The position numbers are program-made. Below are positions 30,001 to 36,000 of a DNA stretch of 64,000 nucleotides, in pieces. Source of the stretch: Candidatus Moanibacter sp. (GTDB lineage Bacteria; Verrucomicrobiota; Verrucomicrobiia; Opitutales; UBA2987); assembly GCA_965215885.1 (NCBI GenBank), contig CBDCEW010000004.1, positions 1-64,000 of the forward strand, in the 5' to 3' direction. Positions within the stretch are counted from its first letter, which is position 1. Each line of letters begins with the position of its first letter.

Positions 30001-33000
30001 TGGCGCGTATTTCCTTTACCATGTACGATTTCATGAAACTCGATTCAGGCAAGTGCTCGATGATATTCATTCCCAGACCATCGACAATTACAAATAGAAC
30101 GTGATCTGAATCGCCGATCAGCTTGCCGAGTAAGAGTGACCGCTCGGTTTCTTCGATCCCCTCGACGCCGGCTATCATAGCCAGGGTCCTTGCCAGATCG
30201 ACGCTGTTTGGTGTGTCGTTGATTGGATGTAGAAGCTTTCCCGATTCGAGAAGGCTCTTAAGTGCGGCATCCATTTGTAACCTTTAGCAATTCTCAGGAA
30301 TAGTTCCAACGCAGAACAATCTTCAGACTCAATCTATATGAAGACAGAGATCTACAAGTCGAAGCCATAAATGGTCGCTTTGGGGTTATGCGACGTTGCG
30401 CCAATACGGCGAAATTAGCGGTCTGATAAATAGGACTGTGACCAACGCTTCATATTCTTACCACATACTGGAACAGCCAATCCCCATCAACCCCCCTCCC
30501 GTTAGCCACACGTTTTCCTACCAAACTACTGCAAATCTTTATGATCCGATCGGATCATAAAGATTTGCAGTTATATAGATAGTCTATGGGAGAGATTATT
30601 TTCGAATTGGGGGTAATGGGGTGGACAGGCTAGAGGCCGTAAGAGTTGACGATCTCAGATAGTCTTGGAAGTTGAAATTGACCAAGAAAGGAATCTGTCG
30701 GACTCAGAGTGGATACTATCGATGAGGTGCAGATTTCAGAGAGAGGAATCGACGTCCATAGAGAGACGAGACCGACAGAATCCTTTGAAAAAAAGTAAGT
30801 GCGAATCAATACGTATAGTCATACATTCTCTTTCCTCGACAGGAAAACCTGATGATGAAGGAGACGAATGTTCTTTTCATATTATCCGACCAACACAATC
30901 GGGGTTGTATTGGTTGCTATGGGCATCCGTTGGTACAGACCCCTCATCTGGATAGTCTGGCGGAGAGGGGAACGCTCTTTAGGAACGCCTACACAAATTG
31001 CCCCATATGTGTTCCTGAGCGTGCTTCACTGGCGACGGGCCGGTATGTTCATGAGATTGGATTCTGGGATAACGGAATTCCTTACGATGGTACGGTAAAG
31101 AGCTGGGGACATCGTTTGAAGGAGAGCGGGTATCGGGTAGATTCGATAGGGAAGTTGCACTTTCGCAGCGCGGAGGATGACAACGGATTCACGGAAGAGC
31201 ACGACCCGCTTCATGTCGTAGATGGAATTGGCGACCTGTTAGGCTGTATTCGAGAGAACCCCCCATTTCGTGAAAAGCGGGAGGGAATTCTCGAAGCGGG
31301 TCCAGGTGATTCAACGTATCTTGAGTATGACAGCAGAAACGCTGCGACGGCTCGGCGATGGCTGCGAGAACATGCTAATGATGAGAAACCGTGGGCACTG
31401 TTTCTCTCTTTTGCCTGTCCACATCCACCCTACATTGCTCCGGAGCGATGGTTTCGGAAGTATCCATTGGATTGCGTTCCGATGCCGACGCAATGGGAGG
31501 TTGAAGAATGGCCGCATCATCCCGCAATTGATTACTTTCGAGCATTCTTTGATTTTGCAAAGCCCTTTTCAGAGGAGGAAATCCGAAGATTGGTAGCAAC
31601 ATACCTTGGAGCCTGTTCCTACCTCGATGAGCAGATCGGGAGTGTAATCGAAGTTTTATCGCAACTTGGGCTCGATGAGAGGACTCGGATAATCTACTCA
31701 TCCGACCATGGTGAATGTCTAGGAGCACGGGGAATTTTCGGGAAATTCGTCATGTATGAGGAGTCGGCGGCAGTTCCCCTGATCATTGCGGGGCCAGGAG
31801 TTCCGCAAGACAGGAAAGTGGCCACACCAGTTTCGCTTGTCGATTGCTACCCGACCGTACTTGATGCGATGGGATTAGAACTAACGGATGCGGAGAGTGG
31901 ATTTCCAGGGCGCTCTCTTTGGCAAACGGCAGTGGAACCGGATCGCGATCGAGTGGTGTTCAGCGAGTATCATGCCGTCGGATCGCGGCATGCGAGTTAC
32001 ATGCTGCGAAACAGACGCCACAAGTACGTGCATTATGTCAATGATCGACCACAGCTTTTCGATCTTGAGACCGATCCTCAAGAGCTCGTGGACGAATGGA
32101 GAAATCCTCAGTGTCGAGAGGTGGTTGAACAATTCGAGAAGCGACTGCGCCAGATACTTGACCCGGAGGAGACCGACCGTCGGGCCAAGGCCGACCAACG
32201 AGGGAAGGTAGAGGTCTTTGGAGGAGAAGCGGCTGTGCGGAGTAGGGGGGCCTTTGACAATTCGCCCACTCCCGGAGAAGCGCCGAAGTTCAAGCTGGAG
32301 TGAGGTTTAATCTCTCTTACCTCCGATTGAGACCCGGTACGTGTTTAACGTCATGCTTTCGATTGCCGGCTGCCCCGGTCTTGTGCCGGGGTGGCGCGCG
32401 TTCCCTGCTATAAGCCGTGTCTCTACCAACCCCTCCGCCGGTCCTTTTTCGCCTCAGTCCCGGCATGCCGGGACTGAGGCGAAAAAGGACCGGCGGAGGG
32501 GTGCGCGGTGGCAATCGCGTATTGTAGCTGTATACCGTGCGCCTCCCCGGCACAAGACCCATCGTTCTGAATTTCGGTTGGCACGCAAATTGCGTGGAGT
32601 TCTCTGGTTAGAGCATGAAGAAAATGGGGAGCAGAGGGAGGGCACTGGAGTCGTTGTCAGGAGGCAATCCGATGGGGTTGCGGGTTTAAGGATTGATCCT
32701 GGCGATTACAGACTTCGAAGAGTTCCTCAAGGAAGTTTTCTTTTCGCAGGAGCTTTTTGGGCAATCGACCCACGGCGAGGGTTTTTCTGTTCGCCCGCCA
32801 GTGACTGAAGGGGGGTGCTTTCTGTGCAGCCTGGGCAAGCTTTTGGGGCAGATTATCGATACTGCCTAAAACCAGCTCCACATAGCGGGGATTGTGTAAG
32901 TTGGCCAGGAGCATGTATTCTTCGGGGAGCGCTTCAAAGTCGCGCGTCAGATTTTTGCGCCCGTGGGTTTGACGGCGTTTGCGCTTGGAGGTGCGCCAGG

Positions 33001-36000
33001 TGCCTTCCAGCTCATTGGTCGTGCGTACGCTGTCTGGATGGGCCGGTGGGGGAAGCAGCCGCTGCCAGTATTTGTCCAGATGAGTGACCACGGTGCGGTA
33101 GAGTTTGGCTTTCGAGGGGTTGGTCAGGGAGGCGCCTTTTTGGCGATATTGGGCACGCAGCAACTGGAGAGCCTCGGTGAGCTCAGCGGCTTGTCCTGCT
33201 TGCAACAGATAAGGGTCGCTTAAAGGGCAGGGGCCGCTGGCGCTGAGCCAAAGGGCATCGCGCAAAGCGCTGAAAATGCAAAAAGCGTTTTCATAGATAG
33301 TAGCGGCTTCGATGACGAGGGCATCAGCCAGATACTGCTTCAACCCGGTCGAAAGATGAAAGAAGCTTCGCAGAACAGAGCAACTGGCAGGAGCGCGGGC
33401 AAGCCACTGCTCCAGGGCGGCATGGGCGCGCACGACCCGCCGATGCCAATAAAGCAGGTAAGGATCGAAGGGAAAGCCCTGGCGGTGACCGTCGCAGGGA
33501 TAATCCAAAATCCACAATTGCAGGGCCATGAGCAGTTCCCGTGCAAGGGTGGGATCGAAGGGCACTGCGAGCGCTTTGGCGGTGAGCAAATCGGCCAGGA
33601 CGAGGGCGTGTTTTTCACGGAGGGCGTCACGGAGCTTTGCGGTGATGTGTTTGCGTTGCTCGCGCATGCGCTCCATGAGCTTCAATTGCCGCAAGCGCCC
33701 GTTGAGCATCTGCTGGGGTTTTCGATAAAGCTGTTCGCCCACATTGCGGGCGAAATGATAATGGCAGACGCCATGGGGGGCCTGGAAGGTTTCGCTCTCG
33801 CAGGCCTTGCTGATCTGAGCGCTTAAATCATGATAGACATGGTGGGGTTGGCCAAAAGCCCGGGCCGCCCGGGCAAAACAGCCACTGATCGTTTCGCTCT
33901 GTTCGGAAGGCATTTTCCAGCTGCCCAAAAGGATCCCTTCGTCGGCTTCCTGAACAGCGAAGAAAACCGGCGTCTGCGGTTCCACGGTCCCATCCACCAG
34001 CCAGCGCAGGCAAGGGCGAGCGCTCAGGTAATCTTTAAGCACCGGAGCGGCCGCGGCGTGCAGCCGACCCAGATAAAAAAGAAACTTCTGCTGCATCTCA
34101 TAGAGGCTGCTTTGAGCAATCTGCAGCTGCCCCGGGCCCTCGCGCAGTTCCCTGTGCACCTCTTTGAGGGTGGCGCTTTCGCACAAACATCGCTTGCCCA
34201 CATAGGCAATCAGATCGTAAGCGTAGCGACTATGCGAGGGCACGATCTGTTCCAGGCGAGCAGAACGGTAGCTGTTGCGGTGGCTCCCTTGCCCCTGCTC
34301 GCGCACAACTTCCACCGCCTGGAAGCATCCATAGGAGAAACTGACCACCTTGCGGCGCAGGGTCTTGCGCACCTCTGAAGGACCCTCTTCGTCCTCCCGG
34401 GCATCGAAGCGATAACTCGTTTGCGCAGGCACAGCCCCCACCGTTTGCAGGGCCCGTTCAGCCTCTGCCCGCAAATCATGTAACAGCTCCGCTACCGCGA
34501 TCGGTCCGGGTTTTTTTTGAGCGAGTAAAACGCCATCACCCGCTCAATTTGCTCCCCGCTCAGCTCTACTCCCTGCTCTTGCATAAGCTCGACAAGCTCC
34601 TTGACCCCGGCCTCGGGATGGCCGATACAGGCGACCAGCAAAGCGATCACGACCATCGTTTCGAGCCCTTCGGGAGCTGCCTGCAAAGCGCCCCCGGGGT
34701 CCCCTGCCTGAACTTGTGCCGCTGTTCTTCGCCCTTGCCGCCGCTTTTTCTGTTCGGCCCCGCCCTGTTCCCCGGCCGAGACATACACGCAGTGACGCCC
34801 TTCATAGTATCGACTCAACCGCTTCTTTCTACAAAGCACGCTTATGGGGTTGTGCACCCGTACCCCAAGGAGGGTCTCCAACTCAGCCACCGTGTAGCCG
34901 CAAAGCGAAGCTCCCACCACCGCCTCCACGGTCTCCTCCAAGGTGCCGTGGCGCGAAAAGCGCCCCTTGCGAAAACGCCACAAACCGGCCCCGTCAAAGC
35001 GCGGAATGTCTTTCAAGCTCAGGTAGCCACAATTGGCATTGTAACTGGAGTAATGGCCATATTTTTGCAAAGCCCGATAGACCGTTCGCCGCGACACCCT
35101 CTGCTCCTTCATCAGCCTCCACACCGTGCTTACCCGATCCCGCCGTACCGCTTCGACCACCTCCCTCTCTTTACGCGAAAGCTCTTCTTGCATGCACCGG
35201 CACAGTATGGAAAGGAGGCAAAACTGCAAACTTTATTTTACATACAATGCCAATACCAACTTTCTCCAGCTCCCTTCGCTTCTACTCAATTGCCACCAGA
35301 AATCAACTCCCCGTTCAAAGCGCTTTTGTAACTGATTAATACTCAACAAGTTTCTAACTGAAAACAAACCTGCAGGAAAAGCTCTCTACCTCTAACGAAC
35401 CCACACACAACAATCGTTGAAACTCCATTCTGGCATACTATGTAATCAATAGAATCTTGCAAGTGCCTGAATAACATTTACTTTGGGTTCTCCAACCCAA
35501 TTTCGTAATTATGGGCACAAGACCGGGGCAGCCTCAGAAACGCTAAACAGGTGCGAAACCCGAGGCTCCCTGACAGCACTGCTTCTCAGTGTCTCTTCGT
35601 GCGTGTTTGTCGAAGACTACAACAGACTGACAACAAGGTACTTGCGGAAGTAAACTTGACGTTTTCGGGTCGAACGGGAGAGCTACAATTCTAAAGACCG
35701 ATGAAACGTTATCAGCAACCTTTTCAGCCGGAGAAGAACATGGGGAATCCGAGTAGGTTTCATCAGAAATGATCTTCTTCCAGGTTCAGGAATCTCAACT
35801 CCTTGTGAGTCAGTTCTAAAGGAAGAGCGCCTAGTGAGGAGCGAGTTTCGCTCAATTGGCGAGGACCGATCAATGGAAAAGTGGGAAACGGCTGGCAGAG
35901 GACGTAGGCGAGGGCGATATTGATGGGCTCGACACATTTTTCTTTAGCGAGTCCCATGGCGCGGCGGCGACGTTCGAAATTATCGTCGGAGTACCAGCAG

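Follow-up and report, generated by a model that had tools for sequence, protein, structure and literature searches.

What kind of mobile element occupies positions 32558 to 35515 of this contig, and why does it lie, in almost every copy, at the center of the same palindrome? The window analyzed here comprises the first 64,000 nucleotides of contig CBDCEW010000004.1 of Candidatus Moanibacter sp. (Verrucomicrobiota). The genome-wide survey's note had described a 2,958-bp insertion sequence (IS) with 33 left and 33 right ends, and a blastn search of the genome's 105 contigs (6.36 Mb) with the element as query returned the same numbers, at a minimum of 30 different loci. Taken as a whole, the locus is very probably best explained by a recently expanded, active IS that belongs to an unnamed clade within the IS256/Mutator-like DDE group.

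The element, its copies, and its landing sites

32558..35515, minus strand (genes): insertion sequence, flanked by a 7-bp duplication; 33 left and 33 right ends in the genome
32558..32581, no strand: low-coordinate terminal inverted repeat CCCATCGTTCTGAATTTCGGTTGG, on the downstream side of the transposase gene; 18/24 match to the other end
35492..35515, no strand: high-coordinate terminal inverted repeat, on the upstream side of OrfA; 18/24 match to the other end
32337..32557, no strand: interrupted repeat, left part (terminus GTACGTGTTTAACG, intact H1, long central hairpin, left arm of H2)
32373-32391, no strand: site H1, intact CCCCGG-TCTTGTG-CCGGGG, within the left part of the repeat
32545-32550, no strand: site H2, left arm, at the end of the repeat's left part
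32551..32557, no strand: target-site duplication, left copy CACAAGA, identical to the 7-mer at 35516-35522
35516..35522, no strand: target-site duplication, right copy CACAAGA, paired with the left copy
35523..35554, no strand: interrupted repeat, right part (right arm CCGGGG at 35523-35528 and outer terminus ...CGCTAAACAGGTGC)

The IS has multiplied recently within this one genome, and its copies are 98.6 to 100% identical over long HSPs. Pairing of the ends gave 30 elements, 21 of 2,948 to 2,972 bp, 2 of 3,226 to 3,275 bp, and 7 split by other DNA. The terminal inverted repeats contain a core, AT(C/T)GTTCCGAAATT(C/T)GGTTGG, that is common to relatives, as the survey had claimed. We found no short derivatives with these terminal repeats in the genome, where the 4 pattern matches located away from known copies seem fortuitous, and no junction of a right with a left IS end within 200 nt in the assembly, whose contigs cannot show rare circles. 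Logan contigs yielded no empty form specific to the window locus; joints there that skip the IS have sides of only 30 to 39 nt and probably come from other copies of the repeat.

The junctions in the window read CCCCGG-CACAAGA (32545-32557), then the IS, then CACAAGA-CCGGGG (35516-35528). Across the genome, exact CCCCGG plus 7 nt adjoins 26/33 left ends and exact 7 nt plus CCGGGG adjoins 29/33 right ends; with one error and a spacer of 6 to 8 nt allowed, the arm adjoins 31/33 ends on each side, which agrees with the survey's count for left ends and falls one short of its 32/33 for right ends. These counts support insertion almost exclusively in the center of one palindromic site, which belongs to a resident repeat of ∼247 bp. 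The repeat has this site, CCCCGG-TCTTGTG-CCGGGG, twice and in opposite orientations (H1 and H2), so that each repeat provides two intergenic landing sites. Uninterrupted CCCCGG-N7-CCGGGG sites number 83 in the genome, versus ∼0.8 expected from base composition, and 51 of these have the usual center, TCTTGTG or CACAAGA; the survey had correctly reported that such hairpins exist, with a count (54) that we revise to 51. Sites with the usual center were filled in 26 cases and empty in 51, those with other centers in roughly 2 and 32 (Fisher p = 0.0017 for the preference, from hand-assigned counts). As in the palindrome-targeting class of elements, most copies lie in a repeated extragenic palindrome that also occurs uninterrupted in the same genome.

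Direct 7-bp repeats flank 17 of the 30 paired copies, and the DNA beyond them differs, being the outer part of the repeat on one side and the inner part on the other. Of the 23 near-full copies, 14 have the direct form (exactly in 9, with a single mismatch in 5), 7 are inverted, and 2 are unclear, the same counts as before, and the earlier claim that the 7-nt center is duplicated on insertion is borne out by the direct duplications, including one of CTATCGG at a single insertion outside the usual site and outside any palindrome. Inverted flanks were seen at 9/30 paired copies, 7 outer-outer and 2 inner-inner. The survey had argued that inverted loops need a second event; they fit homologous recombination between oppositely oriented copies, or instead assembly chimeras. 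On C92, the inner-inner copy lies between two repeats of unlike sequence, and in 3 of the 7 outer-outer copies the outer type is identical to the left and to the right (flanks read by eye). The outer-outer excess (7 versus 2), together with the sole IS copy in the genome of the related locus L016, which is outer-outer as well, is not predicted by simple reciprocal recombination.

The ∼247-bp repeat is older than the IS. It is present with identical H1 and H2 sites at no fewer than 19 places in a relative, G011, in which the IS protein had 0 matches, likewise in all 40 relatives searched. As a single strand the repeat has a predicted folding energy of -88.6 kcal/mol (z -15).

Relatives in other genomes and the reading of the target

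We found 29 related loci in genomes whose record titles name seven phyla, slightly more than the 27 noted by the survey, and relatives in many other bacteria likewise insert into palindrome centers, mostly between complementary arms. In 27 of the 51 relatives whose two flanks could both be read, the arms are complementary at 6/7 or more bases, compared with 7.4% of control pairs that combine the left flank of one locus with the right flank of another (mean complementarity, 5.2/7 versus 3.1/7), which upholds the claim that most readable relatives sit between the halves of a hairpin. Direct 7-bp repeats are present in 13/51, and these 13 average about 5.5/7 arm complementarity; 28/51 lack a repeated 7-mer in either orientation. 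A loose consensus extends across phyla, with C at -13 in 72%, C at -10 in 86%, and G at -9 in 54%. In L016's genome, a separate repeat family provides at least 20 uninterrupted GCCACGG-GCTTGCC-CCGTGG sites, and the acidobacterial genome of L023, whose occupied site has CCGGCGG on both sides of the element, also contains, at another place, a similar site that is uninterrupted, GGGTCCCGT-CCGGCGG-CCGGGACCTACT. Since uninterrupted sites are found in two other genomes too, the flanking arms are target DNA and not element ends, and the earlier statement that only this genome offers empty sites does not hold.

The survey's term "hairpin loop" fits the sequence, which by itself does not distinguish a folded hairpin from a dyad-symmetric duplex. 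We consider it possible, but distinctly the less probable case, that what is recognized is a folded form of the target, whether a cruciform extruded from the duplex or a single-stranded hairpin at a replication fork, with the transposase or OrfA binding the stem-loop and cutting at the stem/loop junctions. Arms that vary by locus and phylum (GTCCCGT, CGACGGG, CCATCCA, GGGCCGG, CCACCCA, and others) yet stay complementary within a locus would suit such a reader, as would the duplication of the entire 7-nt loop in this genome and the very stable single-strand fold of the repeat. The raised complementarity of the relatives, also seen in those with direct repeats, fits structure as well as duplex recognition, but may simply reflect available targets that are REP-like palindromes. 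Moreover, a 6-bp stem with a 7-nt loop makes a weak cruciform, several phyla share the loose sequence consensus, and one insertion lies outside any palindrome, while the rare use here of the same arms with other centers is not what a pure structure reader would predict.

We find it highly improbable that the arms and 7-mers are outer parts of a longer element with its true ends further out and no target specificity. Long inverted-repeat flanks do occur in several relatives (70 nt or more at L016, also at L008 and L011), and TAGC and AATCAC recur ∼20 to 40 nt outside the ends at loci of several phyla (seen by eye, with no statistics), but such a reading is contradicted in this genome, L016's, and L023's by the uninterrupted sites, and is opposed by direct repeats that adjoin unlike DNA on the two sides, by the repeat in G011, where the IS protein had no match, and by the lack of short derivatives in the genome. 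Equally hard to credit is a single insertion amplified with the host repeat, with the IS as a passenger whose site preference was inherited and not chosen, for although some flanks are common to more than one copy (3 left pairs, 1 right pair), distal flanks are distinct at 30/33 left and 30/31 right ends, ungapped identity has a median of 0.40 over the 45 nt just beyond the site versus ∼99 to 100% for the IS copies, and the IS occupies both sites of the repeat in both orientations (left end outward in 12 copies, inward in 4). The distinct flanks, near-identical IS copies, and diverged outside sequence instead indicate independent recent insertions into old repeats.

Overlapping reading frames and the transposase

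34492..35229, minus strand: OrfA, 245 aa from TTG, 233 aa from the first ATG at 35193
32657..34543, minus strand: OrfB, catalytic transposase part, 605 aa from TTG at 34474, frame open from 34543
34511..34518, minus strand: A-run, candidate recoding site in the 52-nt OrfA/OrfB overlap; A8 in this copy, A9 in most
33992-33994, minus strand: D161 codon, catalytic, invariant
33827-33829, minus strand: D216 codon, catalytic, invariant
33755-33766, minus strand: C237/H240 (CxxH), invariant
33005-33007, minus strand: E490 codon, catalytic, invariant

The two genes of the earlier description (233 aa and 605 aa) exist as open reading frames and are better viewed as a putative OrfA/OrfAB recoding pair joined at a run of 7 to 10 A, from which production of a fusion protein may be expected. 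The frames overlap out of register, and a slippery run is conserved where they meet, as in recoding elements. In the OrfA frame the run reads A_AAA_AAC, with OrfB in the -1 frame; copies in the assembly have A9CC in 18 cases and A8CC in 15. An A7-A10 run is present at the junction in 66/68 relatives, and relative to OrfA the OrfB frame is -1 in 50 of 63 relatives, +1 in 13, and in-frame in 0, while distant relatives are natural in-frame fusions that read through KKK at the point of the A-run. Because the genome has two run lengths and 13/63 relatives are at +1, one -1 frameshift cannot serve all copies; the occurrence of both arrangements at one A-run suggests that slippage by gain or loss of A suits the pattern better than a fixed ribosomal frameshift. 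OrfA is predicted to form two tandem winged-helix domains followed by a C-terminal three-helix bundle (AF2 pLDDT 87.8). Its Pfam matches are limited to weak HTH hits, its Foldseek matches are tandem winged-helix proteins (TFIIIC tauB, ScpB, and the SelB C terminus), and it is homologous to the N terminus of a natural fusion, P0143 (E 3e-33).

D161, D216, E490, C237, and H240 do not vary among 29 sequences, confirming the residues named by the survey. The CxxH lies 21 residues past the second D and is followed by a helical insertion domain of ∼240 residues. The D-to-E spacing is 274. The AF2 model of the transposase has a pLDDT of 84.7 (81.7 had been given before), and its best folds are those already reported, namely, ISCth4 (Z 13.0, 314 residues aligned, model residues 16-530), Hermes (Z 11.7, model residues 131-537), and the P element.

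The lack of recognition by Pfam and NCBIfam was likewise reproduced. Pfam returned nothing above cut-off for the window transposase (best E 0.083; Transposase_mut PF00872, 11.1 versus 21), and the sole NCBIfam match with E ≤10 was IS256 (NF033543), at 28 bits (E 1e-6) versus a cut-off of 150. NCBIfam has models for, among others, IS3, IS4, IS5, IS21, IS30, IS66, IS110, IS481, IS630, IS701, IS1182, IS1380, IS1634, ISL3, ISAs1, ISAzo13, ISKra4, ISLre2, ISH3, ISH6, and Tn3, and no match of the window transposase to its IS-family models reached a curated cut-off. Thirty distant relatives scored far below the cut-offs of the curated IS256 profiles considered (NCBIfam NF033543, NF048019, and NF033544; Pfam PF00872), with a best score of 42 bits. 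As counted earlier, there are 284 protein relatives, all unnamed or "hypothetical protein" in public records. Of the 120 close relatives listed, 2 are annotated with the MULE domain PF10551, and distant relatives P0181 (29.0 bits) and P0264 (30.1 bits) pass its cut-off of 27.6, with several just below; the window protein has no MULE or hAT Pfam match, no BED finger, and no hAT dimerization domain.

These results support placement of this DDE/CxxH enzyme in the IS256/MULE/hAT structural class, with scores below all curated Pfam and NCBIfam cut-offs. Its DDE RNase-H fold, helical insertion domain, and CxxH after the second D are those of the IS256 fold. The element departs from the IS256 family in the missed curated profiles, the length of 2,958 bp, the two overlapping reading frames, and the 7-bp duplication; IS256 family members are small elements with a single ORF that span 1.2 to 1.5 kb and produce duplications of 8 to 9 bp. 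Membership in the hAT superfamily is not supported either, with no hAT Pfam match, a 7-bp and not an 8-bp duplication, and a resemblance to Hermes in fold alone.

We hypothesize that the IS produces an OrfA that binds DNA and has the tandem winged helices of the model, and that slippage at the conserved A8-A9 run, either ribosomal (-1 frameshift) or transcriptional (A gain or loss), would yield an OrfA-OrfB fusion of ∼850 aa that acts as the transposase. OrfB would contribute the RNase-H-like DDE domain (D161, D216, E490) with its CxxH, then the unusually large helical insertion domain. A complex of transposase and IS ends may capture a dyad-symmetric site, loosely CC.CCGR-N7-YCGG.GG and preferentially CCCCGG-TCTTGTG-CCGGGG in this genome, and join both IS ends 7 bp apart at the arm/center boundaries, after which repair would duplicate the 7-nt center. 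Some part of the protein would read the target, presumably as duplex DNA, and by analogy the chemistry could be copy-out/paste-in, borrowed from IS256.

Comparison with known systems

The best structural match of the window transposase, covering its N-terminal part too, is ISCth4 (EMBO J 2020, PMC7780238; PDB 6xg8, 6xgx), for which that account gives D175/D241/E348 and C262/H265. Like the enzyme described there, the window transposase has an RNase-H-like DDE core broken by an all-helical domain that starts with CxxH, 21 residues past the second D. Set against the same description, the window IS is larger (2,958 versus 1,503 bp), with an insertion domain of ∼240 versus 65 residues, a D-to-E spacing of 274 versus 107, a 7-bp versus an 8-bp duplication, and a GC-rich palindrome as target versus an A/T-rich preference; it also has an extra OrfA joined by putative recoding. 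MULE and hAT transposases (Hermes, PDB 4d1q and 6dww) share the DDE core with CxxH and a helical insertion domain, whereas the window element is bacterial, makes a 7-bp duplication, and has no MULE/hAT Pfam match and no detected BED finger.

With IS1/IS3-type OrfA/OrfAB elements the window IS shares two overlapping frames and an A-run at their junction (A_AAA_AAC or A_AAA_AAA in the upstream frame), and with the IS3 family an OrfA with a helix-turn-helix motif; its clade differs in having both -1 (50) and +1 (13) arrangements at the same A-run. Transcriptional slippage in IS genes is described by Baranov et al. (2005, PMC1088944), and +1 slippage is described for IS1447 (PMC6211511). Palindromic repeats are known targets of other IS families, and the elements that Tobes and Pareja (2006, PMC1525189) describe as selectively targeting short repeated extragenic palindromes include IS1397 and ISKpn1 (IS3), IS621, ISPpu9, ISPpu10, and ISPa11 (IS110), ISRm22 (IS4), ISRm5 (IS256), and ISNm1106 (IS5). 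The window transposase is of another lineage, with no rve, DEDD, or IS4-type domain found, and the preference is here common to relatives over many phyla and not a trait of single elements. New here are the putative OrfA/OrfAB pair at an A-run, the uninterrupted sites in two more genomes, the reading of inverted copies as recombination products or assembly chimeras, and the presence of the repeat in a relative in which the IS was not found.

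Copies of the element and its target duplication

The insertion sequence (IS) and its catalytic frame are placed in the window as follows.

32558-35515, genes on the minus strand: IS of 2,958 bp, ending in the imperfect inverted repeats CCCATCGTTCTGAATTTCGGTTGG and CCCATAATTACGAAATTGGGTTGG
34474, minus strand: TTG start of OrfB, the 605-aa catalytic DDE part

The terminal inverted repeats agree at 18 of 24 positions, and the element stands between CCCCGG-CACAAGA (left) and CACAAGA-CCGGGG (right), the halves of a site CCCCGG-N7-CCGGGG in which 6-nt arms enclose a 7-nt centre, usually TCTTGTG/CACAAGA. 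A blastn search with the element across the whole assembly (6.36 Mb, 105 contigs, 90.3% complete, 5.47% contamination) found 33 left and 33 right ends, which pair into 30 elements: 21 of 2,948-2,972 bp, 2 of 3.2-3.3 kb and 7 broken by other DNA. Exact CCCCGG plus 7 nt adjoins 26 of 33 left ends and exact 7 nt plus CCGGGG adjoins 29 of 33 right ends; allowing one error and 6-8 nt, a site half adjoins 31 of 33 ends on the left and right alike. The 7-mers at the 30 pairs are exact direct repeats in 12, direct with one mismatch in 5, inverted in 9 and unclear in 4. For the same 23 near-complete copies we regained the 14 direct, 7 inverted and 2 unclear cases listed in the genome-wide survey's note, which had described an unclassified two-gene IS inserting into a hairpin loop; that finding is real, and its reading is supported and extended here. 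The copy at C105:11042-15925 (contig 105) has an exact direct repeat, CTATCGG, that lies outside any palindrome, and the duplication is therefore independently fixed at 7 bp.

Depth over the IS is ∼30 times that over its unique flanks in Logan contigs of run X1, and near-identical sequence is present in runs of 10 studies. RNA-library contigs also cover it, which is coverage by contigs and not a readout of transcription. We found no junction of abutted right and left IS ends in the assembly, no empty form specific to the window locus in Logan contigs of 4 runs and no tblastn match to the protein among 72,556 plasmids. Short non-autonomous derivatives ending in the IS terminal repeats were also looked for, and the 4 matches that lie beyond the known copies resemble chance hits. 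Upstream of OrfA, the 286-nt leader (window 35230-35515) has 39% G+C, against 56% for the whole IS. A copy at C30:39963-42919 has direct TCTTGTG on both sides together with outer-type arms (CTG...CAG, from the part of the interrupted repeat outside the site) on both sides and one additional base at the IS end; among the uninterrupted sites of the genome, none has this form.

A second IS of ∼1.9 kb, with a 556-aa transposase that scores 258 bits against the NCBIfam ISNCY_1 cut-off of 325 and matches IS1182 and IS5 more weakly, has 113 near-full-length copies in the genome and interrupts the 2,958-bp IS in at least 5 of its copies.

Copies of the second IS
L171:1-1935 (C79:37812-39746 of the Candidatus Moanibacter genome)
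C72:32096-33985
C96:90472-92387
C99:135839-137751
C105:11097-13016

OrfB, OrfA and their probable fusion

OrfB had been reported to be unmatched by Pfam, and we likewise obtained a best E value of 0.083, with 28 bits to NCBIfam IS256 against a cut-off of 150. Its 284 close relatives are all unnamed or "hypothetical," mostly on ∼2.9-kb contigs, with 42-49% identity among the best 120 of the 284. An all-against-all comparison of cluster representatives (one per 50%-identity cluster) linked 792 proteins at E ≤0.001 and 137 at E ≤1e-30; named cluster members, including three NCBI records, are called "hypothetical protein," bar one truncated member. None of 30 distant representatives reached any NCBIfam cut-off; they match IS256, its zinc-binding variant, ISL3, IS66 and ISH6 weakly, and 2 of the 30 pass Pfam MULE. 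Three distant proteins (P0230, P0242 and P0262) carry a C-terminal Phage_int_SAM_4 and/or DUF2924 region and a weakly IS66-like N terminus, an unusual mix for a DDE transposase. Sequence searches of the PDB, queried once with one protein and once with an alignment profile (A1), returned chance matches only.

An alignment of 29 sequences shows no variation at D161, D216, E490, C237 and H240. The AF2 model of OrfB (pLDDT 84.7) runs from an N-terminal beta-hairpin region through a helical region to an RNase-H-like core, an all-helical insertion at ∼238-480 and the helix that bears E490. In fold rankings (Foldseek, VIA-align), ISCth4 of the IS256 family came first (Z 13.0, 314 residues aligned, model residues 16-530), ahead of Hermes (Z 11.7) and retroviral integrase cores, and the P element transposase appeared in the Foldseek list. 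ISCth4 is described with D175/D241/E348, C262/H265 and an insertion domain of 65 residues (PMC7780238); the spacing from the second D to the CxxH is 21 in both proteins, whereas the insertion domain of OrfB is nearly four times longer. Neighbours in the ESM Atlas are clusters with partial Transposase_mut, MULE, ISL3 and IS66 labels plus one "ISNCY family transposase," a lead only. Judged from the modelled fold, the element fits the IS256/Mutator structural class, but it departs from the IS256 family in sequence, size, gene number and duplication.

The model of OrfA (233-245 aa; pLDDT 87.8) combines two winged-helix domains in tandem with a long helix and a three-helix bundle, and its fold matches are to TFIIIC tauB, ScpB and the C terminus of SelB. 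OrfA overlaps OrfB, which lies in the -1 frame, by 52 nt, and an A8 run inside the overlap reads A_AAA_AAC in the OrfA frame. Of 68 related loci, 66 have a run of at least seven A's between -120 and +60 nt relative to the OrfB start (38 A8, 26 A9, 1 A7, 1 A10), and in the 63 loci where the OrfA frame was set by tblastn, OrfB is at -1 in 50, at +1 in 13 and in frame in none. Four distant proteins of 819-848 aa (P0143, P0172, P0181 and P0264) are fused naturally: residues 10-207 of P0143 match residues 24-229 of OrfA (E 3e-33), and the aligned fused proteins continue through KKK or QKR where OrfA stops. Long open frames upstream of OrfB in four related loci (L011, L014, L006 and L008) were also considered as natural fusions and dropped, the frame in L011, the only one tested, having no similarity to OrfA. 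On sequence grounds we read the A-run as a conserved recoding site; together with the out-of-frame ORFs and the natural fusions, it suggests that the transposase is likely an ∼850-aa OrfA-OrfB fusion produced by slippage at the A-run.

Copies within the genome differ at the run (equivalents of window 34508-34518), with A9CC in 18, A8CC in 15 and A8CCC in the window copy alone, and such length differences flip OrfB between the -1 and +1 arrangements. The A9 form is the majority in short-read contigs of four runs, so some A8 calls may be homopolymer errors, and the differences among copies may reflect real variation or assembly error. Transcriptional gain or loss of an A, as reported for IS genes (PMC1088944, PMC6211511), is favoured because the -1 and +1 arrangements coexist, which still leaves room for -1 ribosomal frameshifting at the run. 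A run with both arrangements offers a clean test case for transcriptional versus ribosomal slippage.

Palindromic sites in this genome and in relatives

The genome holds 83 uninterrupted CCCCGG-N7-CCGGGG sites, against ∼0.8 expected from composition, and 51 of them have the usual centre TCTTGTG or CACAAGA. The site is part of a ∼247-bp repeat (for example, C75:53782-54028) with termini GTACGTGTTTAGCG...CGCTAAACAGGTAC, a pair of oppositely oriented sites, each close to one end (H1 and H2), and a long hairpin in the middle; folded as a single strand, the window copy of the repeat gives -88.6 kcal/mol (z -15). No Rfam family fits the repeat, window 32250-35650 yielding only sub-threshold miRNA-like hairpin matches. 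Two repeat copies, C44:35904-36146 and C97:61469-61714, are bordered by short inverted sequences (e.g., ...CCCGAAA... / ...TTTCGGG...), as if nested in another palindromic element. A genome of the same family (G011, 8.3 Mb, 96% complete) has matches to the repeat at at least 19 places with 69-80% identity, both sites being found in all 5 copies inspected with the usual centre or a one-base variant. In these copies (L082, L084, L086, L088 and L090) the sub-terminal sites are nearly unchanged while the remainder is 69-80% identical, and the central stem, by eye, varies among copies and is palindromic throughout. A search with the IS protein found no match in G011, nor in the whole set of 40 relatives, and the repeat is thus not tied to the IS.

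In direct-repeat copies, one flank is the outer part of the repeat and the other the inner part; since the two flanks differ and uninterrupted sites exist, the flank is settled as target DNA for this genome. The insertions are independent events: the 33 left ends have 30 different distal flanks, and 31 right ends likewise have 30. Over the 45 nt that adjoin the site on its outside, the median ungapped identity is 0.40, whereas the IS copies are ∼99-100% identical, and it follows from these flanks and identities that a young, recently expanded IS has repeatedly hit old, diverged resident repeats. This is a well-documented added case of a resident palindromic repeat serving as a landing pad that steers an invading IS into intergenic DNA.

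Uninterrupted sites, which the survey's note had held to be offered by this genome only, exist in other genomes too. In a Pirellulaceae MAG (by record title; locus L016), the sequence flanking the IS is a member of a local repeat family in which GCCACGG-GCTTGCC-CCGTGG stands uninterrupted at least 20 times, and the insertion point is immediately after GCTTGCC. The acidobacterial genome that carries L023 has an occupied site, ...GGGTCCCGT-CCGGCGG / IS / CCGGCGG-CCGGGACCTACT, and elsewhere a similar uninterrupted one, GGGTCCCGT-CCGGCGG-CCGGGACCTACT. L011 has a flank that occurs nowhere else in its genome, which showed no uninterrupted site, and a degenerate pattern search in five relatives' genomes gave matches similar in size to controls, the pattern being too loose. 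Both ends were present in 59 of 109 related loci, and 51 were readable for at least 20 nt on both sides. Their 7-mers are direct (≤1 mismatch) in 13, inverted in 10 and neither in 28. That relatives mostly sit between hairpin halves, as first proposed, is borne out by the arms (7 nt outside the 7-mers), which are complementary at ≥6/7 positions in 27 of the 51 loci, against 7.4% of control pairs that joined the left flank of one locus to the right flank of another (mean 5.2 versus 3.1 of 7 positions). Read outward, the arm consensus is C (72%) at -13, C (86%) at -10, G (54%) at -9 and G or A (77%) at -8. From the arm statistics and the L016 and L023 sites we therefore conclude that a dyad-symmetric site with a 7-nt centre is the preference of the whole clade, whose record labels span Thermodesulfobacteriota/Desulfobacterota, Pseudomonadota, Chloroflexota, Planctomycetota, Acidobacteriota, Spirochaetota and Bacteroidota.

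Two further features of the relatives' flanks were seen. At L011:2096-4993, two copies stand in tandem 83 nt apart, and the spacer has site halves at both ends (CCGGTGG ... CCACCGA), the layout expected if a small repeat had both its sites filled. Motifs of the types TAGC(G/C) and (A)ATCAC recur, by eye, ∼20-40 nt beyond the IS ends in loci of several phyla (L001, L006, L008, L011, L013 and L020) and look similar to the outer segment of the repeat in this genome (TTTAGCGT...AATTGC); related landing-pad repeats could be widespread or travel with the IS.

We regard it as more likely that a two-fold symmetric complex captures the target as a symmetric duplex. Recognition of a hairpin or cruciform would suit arms that are diverse across loci and complementary within each, but the arm consensus is common to several phyla, and sites with the same arms and other centres (32 of 83 uninterrupted sites) took only ∼2 insertions. 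With counts assigned by hand, 26 sites with the usual centre are filled and 51 empty, against ∼2 and 32 for other centres (Fisher p = 0.0017). Structural recognition is the less likely but a serious rival.

The nine inverted copies, in which the same side of the repeat stands on both flanks, comprise seven with outer arms (CTG...CAG) and two with inner arms (CCA...TGG). Recombination between copies in opposite orientations would generate both classes, direct insertions having the left end outward in 12 cases and inward in 4; chimeric assembly across a 3-kb, 99.9%-identical repeat in metagenome contigs would also explain them. Simple reciprocal recombination does not predict the excess of outer-outer over inner-inner copies or the recurrence of the outer-outer form in L016, L008 and L011. 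By our own reading of the flanks, three of the seven outer-outer copies have the same outer type on both sides, which rules out deletion within one repeat as their source. For the inner-inner class, the C92 copy, whose two neighbouring repeats differ in inner sequence, rules out a large target duplication (∼190 bp) made when one repeat is hit at both its sites.

A bolder proposal, which we hold to be rather unlikely, is that a hairpin or cruciform reader (either OrfA with its tandem winged helices or the enlarged insertion domain of 240 residues) is built into the clade across at least seven phyla, making it a structure-guided cousin of IS256/Mutator that uses REP-like palindromes as conserved "safe harbour" sites and cuts exactly at stem-loop junctions; outer-IS-outer forms would then arise by integration into a folded-back repeat, not by later recombination. 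The clade keeps a narrow symmetric-site preference across relatives and is a tractable system for asking whether DDE target choice follows DNA structure or sequence, and its interest would grow were recognition structural.

Place among known insertion sequences

The finding is of solid interest to mobile-DNA specialists and useful for annotation: IS elements of this clade fragment assemblies into ∼2.9-kb contigs, and a family name would correct annotation in many metagenome-assembled genomes. Within the literature collection searched, none of three terminal-repeat strings occurs in a paper, and a search on IS256, Mutator, new IS families and hairpin targets yielded no description of the element; a relative may conceivably figure in ISfinder as an unclassified (ISNCY) entry. 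According to PMC1525189, repeated extragenic palindromes are established insertion targets of IS1397 and ISKpn1 (IS3 family) and IS621 (IS110 family), and such insertion is inferred for members of the IS4, IS5 and IS256 families, so the behaviour itself is not new. What is new is the lineage, covered by no curated model or public name, the architecture of winged-helix OrfA, recoding (as read from sequence), very large insertion domain and 7-bp duplication, and a palindrome-centre preference conserved over relatives with record labels of seven phyla; beside these known systems, the IS belongs to a new family-level, palindrome-targeting clade.
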